Below are positions 6,086-24,390 of a stretch of 35,447 bases of DNA, one piece after another (the stretch's first letter is position 1; each line of letters starts with the position of its first letter). The notes under the pieces were generated by a model. The model had not been told where the DNA came from, ran no database searches, and saw only the letters and a list, made by a program, of their open reading frames with translations. Position numbers and translations under genes: made by a program. Source of the DNA: Candidatus Aenigmatarchaeota archaeon (GTDB lineage Archaea > Aenigmatarchaeota > Aenigmatarchaeia > QMZP01 > QMZT01); contig JAGGYQ010000074.1 of NCBI GenBank assembly GCA_021162425.1, forward strand, positions 1 through 35,447, written 5' to 3'.

Positions 6086-7024
6086 ATGGTTAAAATAAGC
6101 AAACAAAGGAAAATTTTGCTGATTTCGTTAATTGTTGCTGTAGGTATGATAACAGGTTTTTCTGTTTTCACCCAAGATGTCGGAATAATAGTAAATGTCG
6201 GTGTGATATGTATGTTCATCGTCGTGACTCCATTGTTTCTTTACAGGTATCTTGAGTTCCTCTGGATAAAGTCAGTCGAAAAAGAATTCCCAAATTTCAT
6301 GAGAGACCTTGCAGGATTTAAAAAATCTGGTATAACCCTATCAGAGGCTGTGAAGATGGCAACACGAAATAAATACGGGAAGTTAACACCAGAGATTCAG
6401 AAGTTTGCCAACCGCCTTTCTTGGGGTGTGCCTTTCCTTCGTTCACTCGAAATATTCGCCAAGAGGTTCAGGAGCTCCATGATAATAAGCGAGGCTTTGG
6501 ATATACTCAAAGAATCATATTTATCAGGCGGGAAAATAGACAGAACACTTGACTCCATATCCAAAGATATGATGCTGTTGAGGGAAATTGAGGAAGAGCG
6601 AAAGTCAGTTGTTCGTCAGCATGTGATGATAATGTATGGGATATTCTTTATGTTCACAGGTGTTTCGTTGGCGATAATCTACGTTCTTTTACCAATGATG
6701 GCTCAGCCACAAGCCCAAACAATGGGTATGCAGTCTCCTATGTCCTTGACGTTCGAAGACCCATGCAGCGGACTACAGGCAACTTTTCCATGCTCTTATT
6801 TTGATGTGGTGTGCAAGGCATTCACAGTCCCCAAGGGCATGGGATGTTATTATGTGTCGTTATTCTTTACAGTTTTGCTGATTCAAGCCATATTCATGGG
6901 TCTTATTGCAGGGCAGTTGGGTGAAAATTCTGTTATTGCGGGCGTAAAACATTCGCTGATAATGTTAGCATTTATATTCGTTATATTTATGTTTATAGTG
7001 AGGGCTGGTTTGCTACCGTTTTGA
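6086..7024 (+). CDS. Type II/IV secretion F-domain membrane platform protein (TadB/C-like)
   Basis: EKEFPNFMRDLA..KSGITL, YGKLTPEI, C-terminal GLIAGQLGE..GVKHS. Confidence 0.88.
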   Translation: MVKISKQRKILLISLIVAVGMITGFSVFTQDVGIIVNVGVICMFIVVTPLFLYRYLEFLWIKSVEKEFPNFMRDLAGFKKSGITLSEAVKMATRNKYGKLTPEIQKFANRLSWGVPFLRSLEIFAKRFRSSMIISEALDILKESYLSGGKIDRTLDSISKDMMLLREIEEERKSVVRQHVMIMYGIFFMFTGVSLAIIYVLLPMMAQPQAQTMGMQSPMSLTFEDPCSGLQATFPCSYFDVVCKAFTVPKGMGCYYVSLFFTVLLIQAIFMGLIAGQLGENSVIAGVKHSLIMLAFIFVIFMFIVRAGLLPF

Positions 7025-20120: not shown

Positions 20121-21374
20121 ATGAACATAAGGCAGATATATGAGTATTATTCGAGAGAAGATGTGCAGGAATTTTTAATAAATTTTGGTAGAAACAGAGA
20201 AGTCGTTGGTGTATTCAAAACAGGCAGCTATTCCCAAAGACCAAATATACTTGTCTACCCAAACGATATAGTGGCAATGGTCAAGACAGGTGTTATCGAA
20301 TTCCATTCTTCGCTTGAAAGATGGTCGCAGCCGATGAATATTAAATTGGAAAATTATGAAAAGTTTCGAGTAGGCTGGGATCTAATACTTGATGTTGATT
20401 GCGAGAATATCGAACATGGAAAAATAGCATCTAACATTTTTGTATGGGCATTGAGGGAGCATGGAATAAAGAATATATCTGTGAAATTTACAGGTGGAAC
20501 AGGATTTCATATAGGCATACCATGGGAGAGTATGCCGGCAGAGGTTGATTACAAACCAACTGTAACCCAATACCCTGACATAGCAAGAAAGATAGTCATG
20601 TATCTCAAGTATTTTTCAAAGGGAAAACTTGAAAAAGCGCTACTGAGCAAATTCGATGTTGAAGAACTCGCCGAGCAGTCAGGCAAGGCAATGGGTGAAA
20701 TACTTACTGATGAGGGAATAGATCCATACAAGGTTGTTGACATAGACCCTGTATTGATCTCTCCAAGGCATTTGTTCAGAATGCCTTATTCTCTCAATAG
20801 GAAGACATTTCTTGTCTCGCTTCCCATAAAAACGAGGGACATACCTGAATTTAATGCAAGGCTTGCCAGTCCGGAAAAAGTAAAGATCACTACAGGATTT
20901 CTGGATAAATATGAGCCTGATGAGGCGAGTGTTTTGATAACCCAAGCTGTTGATTGGTTCATGCGGATTAACAAAAAAATAAAGAAAAAGAAGACTGTAT
21001 CTGCAATAACTAAGGTTGTTCCAATCGAGAACTTCCCGCCTTGTATAAAAAACATACTCAAAGGACTGTCAGATGGACGAAAACGGTCCGTGTTCATACT
21101 CATAAATTTTCTCAGGTCGTGTAAATGGAAATGGGAAAATATTGAGAAATTAATAGGTGAGTGGAACGAACGGAACAAACCGCCTTTAAGAGAGAGTTAT
21201 ATTCGTGGTCAAATAAGATGGCACAAATCGAGAGGCAAGGATATACTTCCCCCTAACTGTCATCATTCTGGTTGGTATGATGATTTCGGCGTGTGCAAAC
21301 CTGACGAGAAATGTAAAAAAATTAAGAACCCTGTAAATTACGTGTTCAAAAAATATCGGAAAAGGTCGAAGTAG
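20121..21374 (+). CDS. Single-chain DNA primase (PriS catalytic domain fused to PriL Fe-S domain)
   Basis: WDLILDVD, KFTGGTGFHI, RHLFRMPYSLN (PriS); FPPCIKNIL...PPNC..C..C..NPV (four-Cys PriL C-terminal domain). Confidence 0.9.
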   Translation: MNIRQIYEYYSREDVQEFLINFGRNREVVGVFKTGSYSQRPNILVYPNDIVAMVKTGVIEFHSSLERWSQPMNIKLENYEKFRVGWDLILDVDCENIEHGKIASNIFVWALREHGIKNISVKFTGGTGFHIGIPWESMPAEVDYKPTVTQYPDIARKIVMYLKYFSKGKLEKALLSKFDVEELAEQSGKAMGEILTDEGIDPYKVVDIDPVLISPRHLFRMPYSLNRKTFLVSLPIKTRDIPEFNARLASPEKVKITTGFLDKYEPDEASVLITQAVDWFMRINKKIKKKKTVSAITKVVPIENFPPCIKNILKGLSDGRKRSVFILINFLRSCKWKWENIEKLIGEWNERNKPPLRESYIRGQIRWHKSRGKDILPPNCHHSGWYDDFGVCKPDEKCKKIKNPVNYVFKKYRKRSK

Positions 21375-21381
21375 TAACACG

Positions 21382-22293
21382 CTATTTAAACCCTTCCCAA
21401 TACCTCCCCAATGTGAGCGAGAGCCATTGTTCATTTACCCATTTCTGTATTTTGCTGATGTCCTTTTTCTTAAGATGTCTAAATCTCTCTTGCATTTCCA
21501 TATATTTTTCAATAGGTTTCAGTTTTGTGGGTTTGTATGTGAGCATAAATTTGCCGTGATATATCTCATAAAGGGGCCAAGCACCTGTATCAACCGCAAG
21601 TTTTGCAAGCTCGATTGTTTTGCTATGGTTGAATCCCCATCCAGGCGGGCATGGACAAAGTAAATCAATAAATGCGGGTTGATTCTTCTTTTCTTTTGCC
21701 TTTAAAAGCTTGTTCATGTAGTCCAGAGGATAACCTATAGATGCGGTCGCTACATATGCTGCTCCTTGGTCTGCCATCATCTTTGCTATAGGTTTTGGGT
21801 GATAAATGTTCCCTAGTGGATTTTTTCTTCCCGGCGGCGTTGTTGTTGTTCTTGCTCCGAAAGGCGTGGCGCTGCTCATCTGGACGCCGGTGTTCGAGAA
21901 GCATTGGTTGTTATATGATATATAAATGAACTTTTCACCTCTTGTTATGGCACCTGACAGTGATTGCAAACCTATATCATATGTTGCTCCATCCCCTGCG
22001 TAAATCATGATGGTTGTATCCTTTTCTTTTTTCAGAATTTTCAAAGCTCTGTAGATGCCAGATGCAGTAGCACCTGCATTTTCAATTGCATTATGTATCC
22101 ATGGCGCTTTCACAGGCATCCAAGGATATGTAACGAACAGCGTAAAACAACCTGAAGCATTGATGATGATGGTCTTCTTCCCCAATGCCTTCAGGGCAAG
22201 TTTAAAACCTATGACAGCGGGACAACCTGCGCAGAGAGGTCCGCCGCCAACAACTATGTCTTCTTCTGGGACGTCCTTTATGGTTTGCATCAT
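21382..22293 (-). CDS. porB: Pyruvate/2-oxoacid:ferredoxin oxidoreductase beta subunit
   Basis: CAGC, ASGC, TPP motif GDGATYDIG...NN, NTGVQMSSATP, CPCPPGW. Confidence 0.92.
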   Translation of the reverse strand: MMQTIKDVPEEDIVVGGGPLCAGCPAVIGFKLALKALGKKTIIINASGCFTLFVTYPWMPVKAPWIHNAIENAGATASGIYRALKILKKEKDTTIMIYAGDGATYDIGLQSLSGAITRGEKFIYISYNNQCFSNTGVQMSSATPFGARTTTTPPGRKNPLGNIYHPKPIAKMMADQGAAYVATASIGYPLDYMNKLLKAKEKKNQPAFIDLLCPCPPGWGFNHSKTIELAKLAVDTGAWPLYEIYHGKFMLTYKPTKLKPIEKYMEMQERFRHLKKKDISKIQKWVNEQWLSLTLGRYWEGFK

Positions 22294-22357
22294 GTTAATA
22301 TTTGGTCACACTTTCTTAAAATTGTTATATTTGCAAGGTGGACAATACATGGTTGGA

Positions 22358-22513
22358 CTACTTCTTCACTTTTTCAAGTCTGACAGAACCGCAATCCCTT
22401 CGAATGACATTCGCTAGCGAGTGTCAAACGATTTTGGGGCAGACCTTTGTGGCAGGTTCCATCAAAATCGGTTTTCCTTCCCATCCACATCGAACGCAAC
22501 GATATTTTGCCAT
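22358..22513 (-). CDS. Intron-split small CPxCG zinc-finger protein; exons 22513-22433 and 22393-22358; spliced product MAKYRCVRCGWEGKPILMEPATKVCPKCGSVRLEKVKK (38 aa)
   Basis: Manual translation: CVRC in exon 1; CPK and CGS separated by 13 in-frame codons that include TGA; TTTAAA at -27..-22 from ATG. Confidence 0.78.
22394..22432 (-). other. Putative 39-nt bulge-helix-bulge (EndA-type) mRNA intron
   Basis: Outer helix CUGC/GCGG, central helix CCCA/AGGG (3 bp plus A.A), 3-nt bulges AA^A and AU^U, inner UCG/CGA plus hairpin UGACA-C-UCG-CUAG-CGA-A-UGUCA. Confidence 0.75.
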
Positions 22514-22556
22514 AAATTTTGTTTGTAATAGAGATTTAAAAATTGAAATATAACCA

Positions 22557-23204
22557 ATGTATATGGGTTCAAACATCACCAATTATAGTAGAATAATTTT
22601 AGTAATATTTTTATTAATTTTCATTAGTGGATGTTTGACAAAGTTGGAATTTCAAAAACCAATAATAATTAAAGATGTTTCTATAACTTTTGACAGTATA
22701 ATGCTGACAAAAGTATTGGATAATGGGCTTGTGTCTGATAAAGGTTATAAATTCGTAGTTATAAACATAACAGCCAAAAATATTGGCACAGAAGAAAGGT
22801 TTTTTCCTTTCTGTTGCCTATTCTACCCTTATGCTAATATGAGACTAGAAGTAGATCGTGGATATAGATATAGACCTCATTATTCTAATACTTTATGCTA
22901 CATAAGTATGTTACGACCAGAAGAAGTTAAAAAAGGCTGTATTATATTTGAAGTATTAGAAGATACTTATCCAACACGTTTAATAATTAATGAAGATTAT
23001 GGAAGATTTATTTTAGACATACCTAAGTGGAAAATTGATGTGAAAGGTTGTAAATATTCTGATGGCTCCTTATGTAAAAAGACGTGTTGTATTACCGCAG
23101 ATAAATGTAATGATAATACATTTTCGTACAAAAAATGCAATGTCTTAACGGGTAAATGGGAAAGTGAAAAATATTCTGATTCTGGCTGTACAATTTATTG
23201 TTGA
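22557..23204 (+). CDS. Lipoprotein with DUF4352-like Ig domain and Cys-rich tail
   Basis: Lipobox FISGC; GYKFVVINITAKNIG and LRPEEVKKGCIIFEV motifs; visibly AT-rich. Confidence 0.75.
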   Translation: MYMGSNITNYSRIILVIFLLIFISGCLTKLEFQKPIIIKDVSITFDSIMLTKVLDNGLVSDKGYKFVVINITAKNIGTEERFFPFCCLFYPYANMRLEVDRGYRYRPHYSNTLCYISMLRPEEVKKGCIIFEVLEDTYPTRLIINEDYGRFILDIPKWKIDVKGCKYSDGSLCKKTCCITADKCNDNTFSYKKCNVLTGKWESEKYSDSGCTIYC

Positions 23205-23313: not shown

Positions 23314-24390
23314 TTATCTTACATGAAGTTCCACAATATCTTTATCTTTCAGTTCGTAATTCATCCCAACTTTTTGTCCAGGGAATTTCGAAGACCCCCA
23401 GATGCGCGCATACTTGAAATTTTTTGCGAATTCCTTGTGTATTCTCTTGGCGACATCTGTAATTTTAGAACCTTTTTTCATTATTAATGGTTCGCTCAGG
23501 TCAGGGTCTTCTCTAATCTTCTTCATATAAATTCTAATGAGATTCAGCTTCTTCCATAACACTTTTTTAAGCGTCTCAAGATTCTCTCCGTTTTTGGCTG
23601 ATATAAAAATACAGTCTATTCGCCTTCCTACTTCTTCCATTCTTTTTTTATCCAGCATATCTATCTTGTTGAACACTACGATGGATGGGACGTAAACCCT
23701 GTTTGTGCACAGCGAATCTATGAACCTGTCGAGAGAAATATCCTCCCTTATAACAACATCGGCGTTGTGAATTCTGTATTCATTTAACACAGTTTTTATC
23801 ATTTTTTCATCTATTTTTGTGAGTTTAACAGTTGATTCAATTCTTATCCCACCTGAATGTTTTTTTGATACAAAAACCTTTGGTTTTTCTTGGTTAAGCC
23901 TGAATCCTGCGTTATACAATTCTTTTTCAACTACGGGAAGCTGTTTCTCTTCATCTATCAATATGATTATAAGGTCAGCATTCCTGACAACAGATAGTAT
24001 TTCTTTGCCCCTCCCTTTCCCTGCAGACGCGCCGTGAATTATGCCAGGTATATCGAGAATCTGTATTTTGGCTGAATTGTACTTCATCACACCTGGAATG
24101 ATATCAAGCGTTGTGAAATCATAGTCACCAATTTTGGATTCTGCATTGGTTAGTTTCGTCAAAAGCGTGGATTTTCCGACAGAGGGGAATCCAACAAGAA
24201 GGATAGTGGCGTCACCACTCTTTTTAACGGAAAAACCCTTACCTTTCTTGCCTGTTTTGAGTTTTTCAGTTTGTTCTGTCAGCCTTGCCAATTTCGCTTT
24301 TAACATTCCTATGTGATATTGCGTCGCCTTGTTATACTTTGTCCTTTTCAATTCATCTTCTATCTTTTTTATCTCATCTTCAAGTCCCAT
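23314..24390 (-). CDS. drg: DRG/Rbg (OBG-family) GTPase with TGS domain
   Basis: NKATQYHIG.LKAKLA, GFPSVGKST, YDFTT, DIPG, NKID, C-terminal TGS. Confidence 0.95.
   Translation of the reverse strand: MGLEDEIKKIEDELKRTKYNKATQYHIGMLKAKLARLTEQTEKLKTGKKGKGFSVKKSGDATILLVGFPSVGKSTLLTKLTNAESKIGDYDFTTLDIIPGVMKYNSAKIQILDIPGIIHGASAGKGRGKEILSVVRNADLIIILIDEEKQLPVVEKELYNAGFRLNQEKPKVFVSKKHSGGIRIESTVKLTKIDEKMIKTVLNEYRIHNADVVIREDISLDRFIDSLCTNRVYVPSIVVFNKIDMLDKKRMEEVGRRIDCIFISAKNGENLETLKKVLWKKLNLIRIYMKKIREDPDLSEPLIMKKGSKITDVAKRIHKEFAKNFKYARIWGSSKFPGQKVGMNYELKDKDIVELHVR

Follow-up and report, generated by a model that had tools for sequence, protein, structure and literature searches.

Results

A zinc-ribbon gene interrupted by a 39-nt insert

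The window analysed here is a stretch of 35,447 nucleotides (nt) from a Candidatus Aenigmatarchaeota archaeon, corresponding to contig C49 of the genome assembly that we call G000 (954,499 bases, 75 contigs, 40% G+C, estimated completeness 92.6%). On its minus strand (22513-22358) lies a short zinc-ribbon gene whose reading frame is interrupted by an insert with the geometry of an archaeal bulge-helix-bulge (BHB) intron. The gene consists of 27 codons, a 39-nt in-frame insert and 11 further codons followed by TAG (22360-22358), adding up to 156 nt with the insert. Exon 1, read from the ATG at 22513-22511, encodes MAKYRCVRCGWEGKPILMEPATKVCPK and ends in ...VCPK; exon 2 encodes CGSVRLEKVKK. The insert (22432-22394) comprises 13 codons, the third of which is a TGA, and the unspliced frame stops at this TGA after 29 codons. 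These sequences and coordinates agree exactly with those given in an earlier sequence-only reading of this DNA, in which a spliced mRNA had been proposed for the locus.

The same reading had placed a TATA element at leaderless spacing upstream of the ATG. This box (Table 1) is conserved in the family of the window genome (f1), as an A/T-rich, TTTAAA-type box is found at equal distance in most f1 homologues, where it may serve as a promoter; a scan of the locus for sigma-70 promoters and terminators does not apply to archaeal promoters. We regard the locus as a conserved, probably leaderless gene for a 38-residue protein with four cysteines, in which the putative intron lies between the third and the fourth zinc ligand (CPK/CG).

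Homologues of the zinc-ribbon gene

A search of related genomes with the window frame read through, the TGA being entered as X, revealed homologues in all 23 genomes of family f1 and in 78 of the 91 genomes of the order, including all 23 with a completeness of 90% or more. In 76 of these 78 genomes the gene is an uninterrupted open reading frame (ORF) of ~38-40 codons, which reads ...VCPKCGSVRLEK... straight through CPK/CGS. Only G000 and a second genome, G008, are interrupted at this point. Flags for stops inside other copies (three further rows in the order; G062, G064, G078 and G024) correspond to natural stop codons. The junction that splicing would create was claimed to be CPK/CGS, and this is the sequence of the intact homologues; homology therefore fixes the excision. 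Removal of 22432-22394 is the sole 39-nt excision that restores the homologue sequence, and a shift by one base in either direction gives a different junction.

A search of the phylum (371 genomes) with an intronless homologue as query detected matches in 100 genomes, the strong ones coming from this order and from 12 genomes of one other family. Besides G000 and G008, an interrupted gene was found among these phylum matches only in G364, where it is visibly decayed; the copy in G081 is truncated by a contig edge. The G364 copy (L045, C21:2632-2724), which comes from another family of the class, begins with ATA, carries a TAG within the frame as well as a frameshift, and looks like a true pseudogene. 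A protein search with a 40-residue intronless homologue revealed six unnamed proteins, all of them uninterrupted. In G000 the zinc-ribbon gene is present as a single copy (one match).

Neither the read-through protein nor its intronless homologues matched a Pfam or NCBIfam family above cut-off. The best Pfam match was Zn_ribbon_8 (PF09723), with 24.7-27.5 bits for intronless homologues and 12.7 bits for the read-through of the window gene, below the gathering cut-off of 34.4 bits; precomputed annotation lists PF09723 for five of the six protein homologues. By its motif the protein is a four-cysteine zinc ribbon that scores below the PF09723 cut-off. An identity with rpoP/Rpo12, which has a similar motif, was rejected: the PF03604 match of the genome lies elsewhere (C19:5600-5701, adjoining an L37Ae-like ORF as is usual for this gene), and the intronless homologues gave no PF03604 match at E values up to 10.

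Bulge-helix-bulge geometry of the insert

BHB geometry was scored as the number of pairs in the outer helix h (4), the central helix H (4) and the inner helix h' (3), with a maximum of 11, and cleavage was placed after the second nucleotide of each 3-nt bulge. At the excision fixed by homology the score is 10/11 (h 4/4, H 3/4, h' 3/3), with outer helix CUGC/GCGG, central helix CCC/GGG plus an A.A mismatch, inner helix UCG/CGA, and AAA and AUU as bulges. All neighbouring registers and lengths score below 10/11. On both strands of the genome, an intron length of 39 being assumed, 10/11 is reached at 941 of 1,900,898 positions (5.0e-4). Scanning the whole genome de novo for BHB motifs would, with 5e-4 per position and length, be expected to return ~1e5 matches by chance. 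The minimum-free-energy fold of 22450-22380 (minus strand) computed with ViennaRNA shows an identical BHB structure and so reproduces the fold that the sequence-only reading had described. Its cleavage rule also holds up elsewhere: the rule reproduces the boundaries that ARAGORN predicts for a tRNA-Gly intron in G000 (BHB 10/11), and it yields three normal tRNAs in a related genome (see below). An Rfam scan of 22250-22650 gave two matches only (E 3.7 and 9.7), neither of them meaningful.

A second lineage with the same insert

G008, which belongs to a different genus, carries a 39-nt insert at the identical site with its own TGA. The G008-type copy was found, identical in sequence, in two metagenome contigs, one of which has a different upstream flank, and also in a record of the genome collection. 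As the copy recurs in this way, the insert is not an assembly artefact. Pattern scans of metagenomes and genomes for inserts of 20-50 nt at CPK/CG detected only G008-type copies.

Alignment of the G000 and G008 genes showed 80% identity in exon 1, 82% in the intron and 83% in exon 2 with its stop codon. The neighbouring gene for a DRG-type GTPase offers 92 fourfold-degenerate sites at identical residues for comparison, and 68 of them differ between the two genomes. At this rate, seven or fewer differences in 39 nt have a binomial probability of ~4e-13, a value that may overstate the constraint on the intron because the synonymous codons of the zinc-ribbon gene are less diverged than those of the DRG gene. 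The seven intron differences include one double change from A-U to G-C, one change from U-A to U-G and one from C.A to U-A; the remaining ones lie in loops or in a bulge. In exon 2 five codons differ, the stop codon included, of which four are synonymous and one is a conservative replacement. The comparison indicates that the sequence of the zinc-ribbon locus is under constraint.

These data bear on three other explanations. The gene could be dead in both lineages, a pseudogene hit by a palindromic mobile element that is kept in the RNA. The in-frame stop and the restriction of the insert to two of the 78 homologue-bearing genomes would suit a dead gene; however, start codon, stop codon, promoter box and exon 2 are intact in both lineages, with the excess of synonymous changes given above, over a distance at which fourfold sites of the DRG gene are saturated. 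Moreover, the gene occurs in every near-complete genome of the order, G000 has no spare copy, and the real pseudogene in G364 has accumulated several lesions. We consider loss of the gene quite unlikely, also in view of the relatives of the insert described below.

Alternatively, only the 29-residue exon-1 peptide might be made, the insert and 'exon 2' forming a 3' RNA element, for instance one acting in stability or termination. The end of the unspliced frame at TGA and the stable stem-loop formed by the insert and its flanks would agree with this, as would the presence of related sequences in non-coding 5' leaders. The peptide, however, would be half a zinc ribbon with three of the four ligands, which is unlikely to fold, and exon 2 aligns in frame with the C-terminal end of every intronless homologue and has changed between the two lineages according to the codon pattern of this frame. 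That the exon-1 peptide is the only product appears very unlikely.

The insert, being in frame with 13 codons, could finally be translated, TGA being read through or recoded to give a 51-residue protein, or the 39 nt could be bypassed by the ribosome. TGA ends 275 of the 670 long frames of G000 and is absent from the interior of long genes; the codon is therefore not reassigned in this genome and acts as an ordinary stop. A 13-residue insertion would part the third and fourth ligands of the CPxCG knuckle, and the six insert codons that differ between the lineages (three synonymous, three not) show no coding pattern. No take-off/landing codon pair flanks the insert, and translation cannot account for homologous inserts in tRNA genes. 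Read-through or bypassing is hardly credible on these grounds.

The G008 copy of the DRG gene (C8; L004/L042, ~6820-6920 of L042) is interrupted by a stretch of N, of which one flank is duplicated over 55 nt. An intron in this gene was rejected, as the gene is intact in a metagenome contig (L040) and the N run with its duplicated flanks represents a scaffolding artefact.

The insert belongs to a family of hairpin mini-introns

A blastn-short search of G000 with the intron detected only the intron itself; relatives surfaced with covariance models and a motif search. A model built from the two mRNA introns only (R1) retrieved copies in tRNA genes, rRNA genes and leaders and has matches in ten of the 23 family f1 genomes. 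A second model (R2), built from 22 members (alignment A2), gave matches in 14 of the order's 91 genomes; 11 of these, G000 included, belong to family f1. The members share a core of ~36 nt, CG-NN-T-GACGTTCG-N4-CGAACGTC-NN-TCGAA, which is paired as a hairpin. The introns of G000 and G008 score 48.3 and 50.0 bits with R2, both being part of its training set. Core identity to the G008 intron reaches 30/32, and local alignment scores are 12-28 compared to 6.0 +/- 1.3 (maximum 15) in 3000 random windows, the aligned set having been picked by the model, which makes this comparison partly circular. At pair 12-25 of the hairpin, 19 members have G-C and three have A-U, and the pair is intact in all of them. 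By sequence, the insert is a member of a hairpin mini-intron family related to tRNA introns, and this membership is new here.

Three copies in the genome G010 are located in tRNA T-loops. They are 37, 38 and 38 nt long, with BHB scores of 10/11, 11/11 and 11/11, and excising them by the cleavage rule gives tRNA-Asn(GTT), tRNA-Phe(GAA) and tRNA-Glu(CTC) as recognised by ARAGORN, which recognised none of the three in unspliced form. The T-loop introns of the relatives directly follow TTCAAA, at a point equivalent to position 59/60. Other copies follow the tRNA anticodon (L078, L084). In G000 itself, copies at C24:11229-11264, C31:7133-7168 and C50:1317-1353 are part of tRNA-like genes with multiple introns; the tRNA-Ser(CGA)-like gene on C24 contains four or five short hairpin inserts.

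Further copies were found in 16S and 23S rRNA genes (L073, G015:C18:174-219; L076, G013:C30:314-349; L091, G004:C49; L110, G064:C20; L111, G040:C18), the 16S copy in L076 with a BHB score of 11/11 at 37 nt. Another copy (L082, G007:C1:44274-44309) lies in an RNase P RNA-like region that scores 41.8 bits, below the Rfam cut-off of 84. This distribution suggests mini-introns in several stable RNAs. Copies also occur, sometimes two in tandem, ahead of protein ORFs, where they lie 5-25 nt upstream of the ATG or other start (Table 1). These leader copies could be BHB introns in 5' untranslated regions (UTRs), comparable to the one in Haloferax HVO_1309, or leader elements of a different nature. Finally, family members are found in intergenic DNA.

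A dispersed, near-palindromic repeat family with intergenic copies is what the insertion of a mobile element into a dead zinc-ribbon gene would also leave behind. Such an insertion, however, does not explain why the insert sits exactly at a BHB site, nor does it fit with relatives that are necessarily spliced from tRNAs.

Splicing machinery and tRNA genes

The sequence-only reading had placed the intron in a DPANN-like archaeon and had pointed to the (alpha-beta)2 and epsilon2 forms of EndA as accepting relaxed motifs. G000 agrees with this: the assembly comprises 0.95 Mb, its tRNA genes are rich in introns, and it encodes both a full-length EndA (tRNA splicing endonuclease) of this type and the ligase RtcB (532 bits). 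EndA is encoded on contig C72 by a single ORF of 400 residues with an N-terminal domain and two C-terminal endonuclease domains (Pfam PF01974, PF02778) and matches PDB 4fz2 over its full length (E 7.8e-104). This structure is the epsilon2 EndA of ARMAN-2, which according to excerpts of the published accounts accepts strict as well as relaxed BHB motifs for cleavage in vitro (PMC6379350, PMC3239211) and has an intron at tRNA position 59/60 among its substrates (PMC6379350, PMC3239211, PMC12397907). By sequence the G000 enzyme is of epsilon2 type, and by analogy with the ARMAN-2 enzyme its specificity would be broad as well. The same EndA type is present in G008 and in two intronless relatives (73-74% identity), and the T-loop copies, too, lie in a genomic background with this type of enzyme.

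ARAGORN detected 14 tRNA genes in G000, with predicted introns in ten of them. So few genes, most of them interrupted, fit with heavy interruption of the tRNA set in a near-complete genome.

A spliced mRNA intron as the favoured explanation

Protein homology, RNA geometry, the second lineage, a broad-specificity EndA and the kinship with tRNA introns together argue for a spliced mRNA intron. We estimate the probability that the insert in the zinc-ribbon gene is an mRNA intron spliced by EndA and RtcB and derived from a tRNA intron at roughly 85%. In the pre-mRNA, CUGC and CCC(A) of exon 1 would pair with GCGG of exon 2 and with GGG(A) at the 3' end of the intron. This fold would present two 3-nt bulges to the epsilon2 EndA, which would cut each of them after its second nucleotide; RtcB would then join the exons and probably circularise the intron. 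A complete zinc ribbon would be encoded by the spliced mRNA only, since translation of the unspliced RNA would stop at the TGA. The intron most likely entered the gene by transposition of a tRNA-type intron, as it is one copy of a family that sits in tRNA, rRNA and other RNA genes.

Several observations weigh against this explanation. The energy of the fold is nothing unusual (z = -1.79, a value matched by 11 of 200 shuffles), and the A.A mismatch in the central helix of both the G000 and the G008 copy makes the motif a relaxed one. In G008 the outermost pair of helix h is disrupted by a synonymous C-to-G change, which lowers the BHB score of this copy to 9/11. With two distinct intron sequences only, covariation between them carries no statistical weight (the observed score is reached by 241 of 500 shuffles), and it is weak across the 22-member family, too (33 of 500 shuffles). 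The synonymous sites of the zinc-ribbon gene are less diverged than those of the DRG gene, with differences at 12 of 32 codons for identical residues. The trees disagree on whether the two interrupted genomes are sisters: a quick RtcB tree pairs G000 with G008 (SH-aLRT 86), whereas a tree of a 232-residue DRG fragment places them apart. The intron may accordingly have been gained once, in a common ancestor of the two genera, or have been present earlier and then been lost precisely and repeatedly, or have spread laterally. No other host in a coding sequence was found among the ~45 family loci examined, and a tblastn comparison revealed no further interrupted gene among those 314 of the 488 relatives' ORFs extracted from homologue loci that have matches in G000, a small and redundant sample. 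A search for RNA sequencing runs listed none for the locus. Lastly, we infer cleavage and ligation of the zinc-ribbon mRNA from its sequence, fold and homology, from the enzymes encoded and from the family membership. One split tblastn match in the ORF sample was rejected as a spurious antisense frame.

The larger class of such introns that the sequence-only reading had suspected exists in part. An intron family was found in tRNA genes, rRNA genes and 5' leaders, and among the ~45 loci examined and the small tblastn sample it revealed no second coding-sequence host. We see an even chance that these ~36-40-nt hairpin mini-introns constitute a lineage-specific mobile family which spreads between RNA genes of these ultrasmall archaea. 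Its hosts would be tRNA genes (T-loop and anticodon loop), the genes for 16S rRNA, 23S rRNA and RNase P RNA, and the 5' leaders of protein genes, and on one occasion or more it would have moved into a coding sequence. Such a family would be direct sequence evidence that transposition of tRNA-type introns creates archaeal mRNA introns, and it may mark more unannotated mRNA introns in 5' leaders.

Genomic neighbourhood of the zinc-ribbon gene

A gene for a DRG-type GTPase (domains MMR_HSR1 and TGS) precedes the zinc-ribbon gene in 11 of 25 homologue loci, and in nine of these 11 the GTPase ORF ends at most ~45 nt from the zinc-ribbon ATG. The direct succession is seen in several genera, and in family f6 the two genes are neighbours in convergent orientation. 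A functional link between them is possible; if the intron is spliced as proposed, the zinc-ribbon protein would need the tRNA-splicing machinery for its expression.

The zinc-ribbon gene of relatives has the DRG GTPase gene on one side and a primase gene on the other. By comparison, the locus of G000 is rearranged: a cysteine-rich DUF4352 gene is wedged between the DRG and the zinc-ribbon gene, and a gene for a TPP-binding protein, similar to the beta subunit of 2-oxoacid:ferredoxin oxidoreductase, is wedged in on the other side. The primase of the window is a fused one, a single ORF of 417 residues with Pfam domains of both the small and the large subunit. Between the zinc-ribbon gene and the next gene lies a mini-ORF of 14 codons, MYCPPCKYNNFKKV, followed by TGA. 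It holds a CPPC motif and may be due to chance or a remnant.

Table 1. Features of the zinc-ribbon locus and leader copies of the mini-intron family. Positions refer to the window unless a locus is named.
Feature	Position	Strand	Remark
TTTTTAAA box, putative archaeal TATA element	22535..22542	-	-29..-22 from ATG, leaderless spacing
Exon 1, 27 codons, M..CxxC..(15)..CPK, zinc ligands 1-3	22433..22513	-	protein 66-89% identical to exon-1 regions of homologues
Outer helix h, 5' strand CUGC, exon 1	22439..22442	-	pairs with 22392-22389
Central helix H, 5' strand CCCA, exon 1	22435..22438	-	pairs with 22399-22396 (3 bp plus A.A)
5' bulge AAA	22432..22434	-	predicted cleavage between 22433 and 22432
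Putative 39-nt BHB intron with in-frame TGA, member of the hairpin mini-intron family	22394..22432	-	without counterpart in 76 of 78 homologue-bearing genomes of the order
Inner helix h'	UCG 22431-22429, CGA 22402-22400	-	flanks the inner hairpin
Inner hairpin of intron, family core GAC..TCG-N4-CGA..GTC	22405..22426	-	fold and family alignment
Central helix H, 3' strand AGGG, intron 3' end	22396..22399	-	fold
3' bulge AUU	22393..22395	-	predicted cleavage between 22394 and 22393
Outer helix h, 3' strand GCGG, exon 2	22389..22392	-	fold
Exon 2, 11 codons and TAG, fourth zinc ligand	22358..22393	-	compared with G008, 4 of 5 differing codons synonymous
Mini-ORF, 14 codons	22306-22350	-	
TPP-binding protein gene	21382-22293	-	
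Fused primase gene	20121-21374	+	
DUF4352 gene	22557-23204	+	
DRG-type GTPase gene	23314-24390	-	adjacency in relatives' loci L005-L009, L014, L018, L025, L026
Leader copy, rpo7-like ORF	L072 (G007:C20:3071-3106); L108 (G010:C6, ~6878-6922)		two genera
Leader copy, proS-like ORF	L105 (G016:C53:1439-1474)		
Leader copies, other ORFs	L101-L103, L107, L109		

Comparison with known systems

Introns spliced by the tRNA endonuclease are extremely rare in archaeal coding sequences. A search of titles and abstracts revealed no report of an mRNA BHB intron in DPANN archaea; supplementary tRNA intron tables for ARMAN-2 might bear on the novelty of the family. If spliced as proposed, the zinc-ribbon gene would be a second coding host, in a different lineage and with a different endonuclease architecture. 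With close relatives in tRNA genes, its intron would provide a concrete case of an mRNA intron that arose from a tRNA intron, and at 156 nt the gene would be a very clean test substrate. ORF callers would report a truncated peptide at best for this gene, which every near-complete genome of the order possesses.

In eukaryotes, HAC1/XBP1 mRNA is cut at stem-loops by a protein endonuclease (IRE1) and rejoined by a tRNA ligase, in a manner regulated by stress. The zinc-ribbon intron resembles this system in that removal of a short intron from a coding mRNA would change the C-terminal reading. It differs in the endonuclease, which in HAC1/XBP1 is IRE1 and not the tRNA splicing endonuclease, and it is not known to be regulated. 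The unconventional splicing of HAC1/XBP1 is mentioned in excerpts of PMC4090602.

The closest counterpart is the cbf5 intron of Crenarchaeota, (Watanabe 2002; Yoshinari 2006), described in excerpts of a later account as a BHB-like intron in a coding sequence with lineage-specific gain and loss (Yokobori 2009, PMC2738675). Both introns are BHB-like and located in archaeal coding sequences, and the tRNA splicing endonuclease, of broad specificity in either lineage, removes the one and is predicted to remove the other. Gain and loss are patchy in both cases, and gene callers overlook both introns. The hosts, however, are a pseudouridine synthase in Crenarchaeota and a 38-residue zinc ribbon in a DPANN-type genome, and the enzymes are of the (alpha-beta)2 and, in G000, the epsilon2 type. 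Splicing was shown experimentally for cbf5, whereas we infer it for the zinc-ribbon intron. On the other hand, the latter has clear relatives in tRNA genes, a link that excerpts of the cbf5 account do not draw (PMC2738675).

As far as excerpts of a 2020 study on Haloferax go, cbf5 was the only additional BHB intron reported, to which the study adds a 5'-UTR case in HVO_1309 of Haloferax volcanii, verified in vivo and in vitro (PMC7714728). In HVO_1309, too, an mRNA is the substrate of the archaeal splicing endonuclease, and the leader copies upstream of the rpo7-like and proS-like ORFs may be analogous. The HVO_1309 intron differs from that of the zinc-ribbon gene in its position in an untranslated leader, where it does not interrupt a reading frame.

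G000 and its relatives share with ARMAN-2 (Ca. Micrarchaeum acidiphilum) the EndA type, as judged by the match to 4fz2, introns at position 59/60 of the T-loop and many interrupted tRNA genes; mRNA substrates, in contrast, are not mentioned in excerpts of the ARMAN-2 study (PMC3239211). For Thermoproteales, transposition of tRNA introns has been proposed (Fujishima 2010, as cited in excerpts of PMC4090602 and PMC3239211). There as here, the mobility of BHB introns follows from nearly identical copies that occupy different positions in different RNA genes. In Thermoproteales, as far as these excerpts go, the transposition takes place among tRNA genes, whereas the copies of the mini-intron family described here are also located in a coding sequence, in rRNA and RNase P RNA and in 5' leaders.

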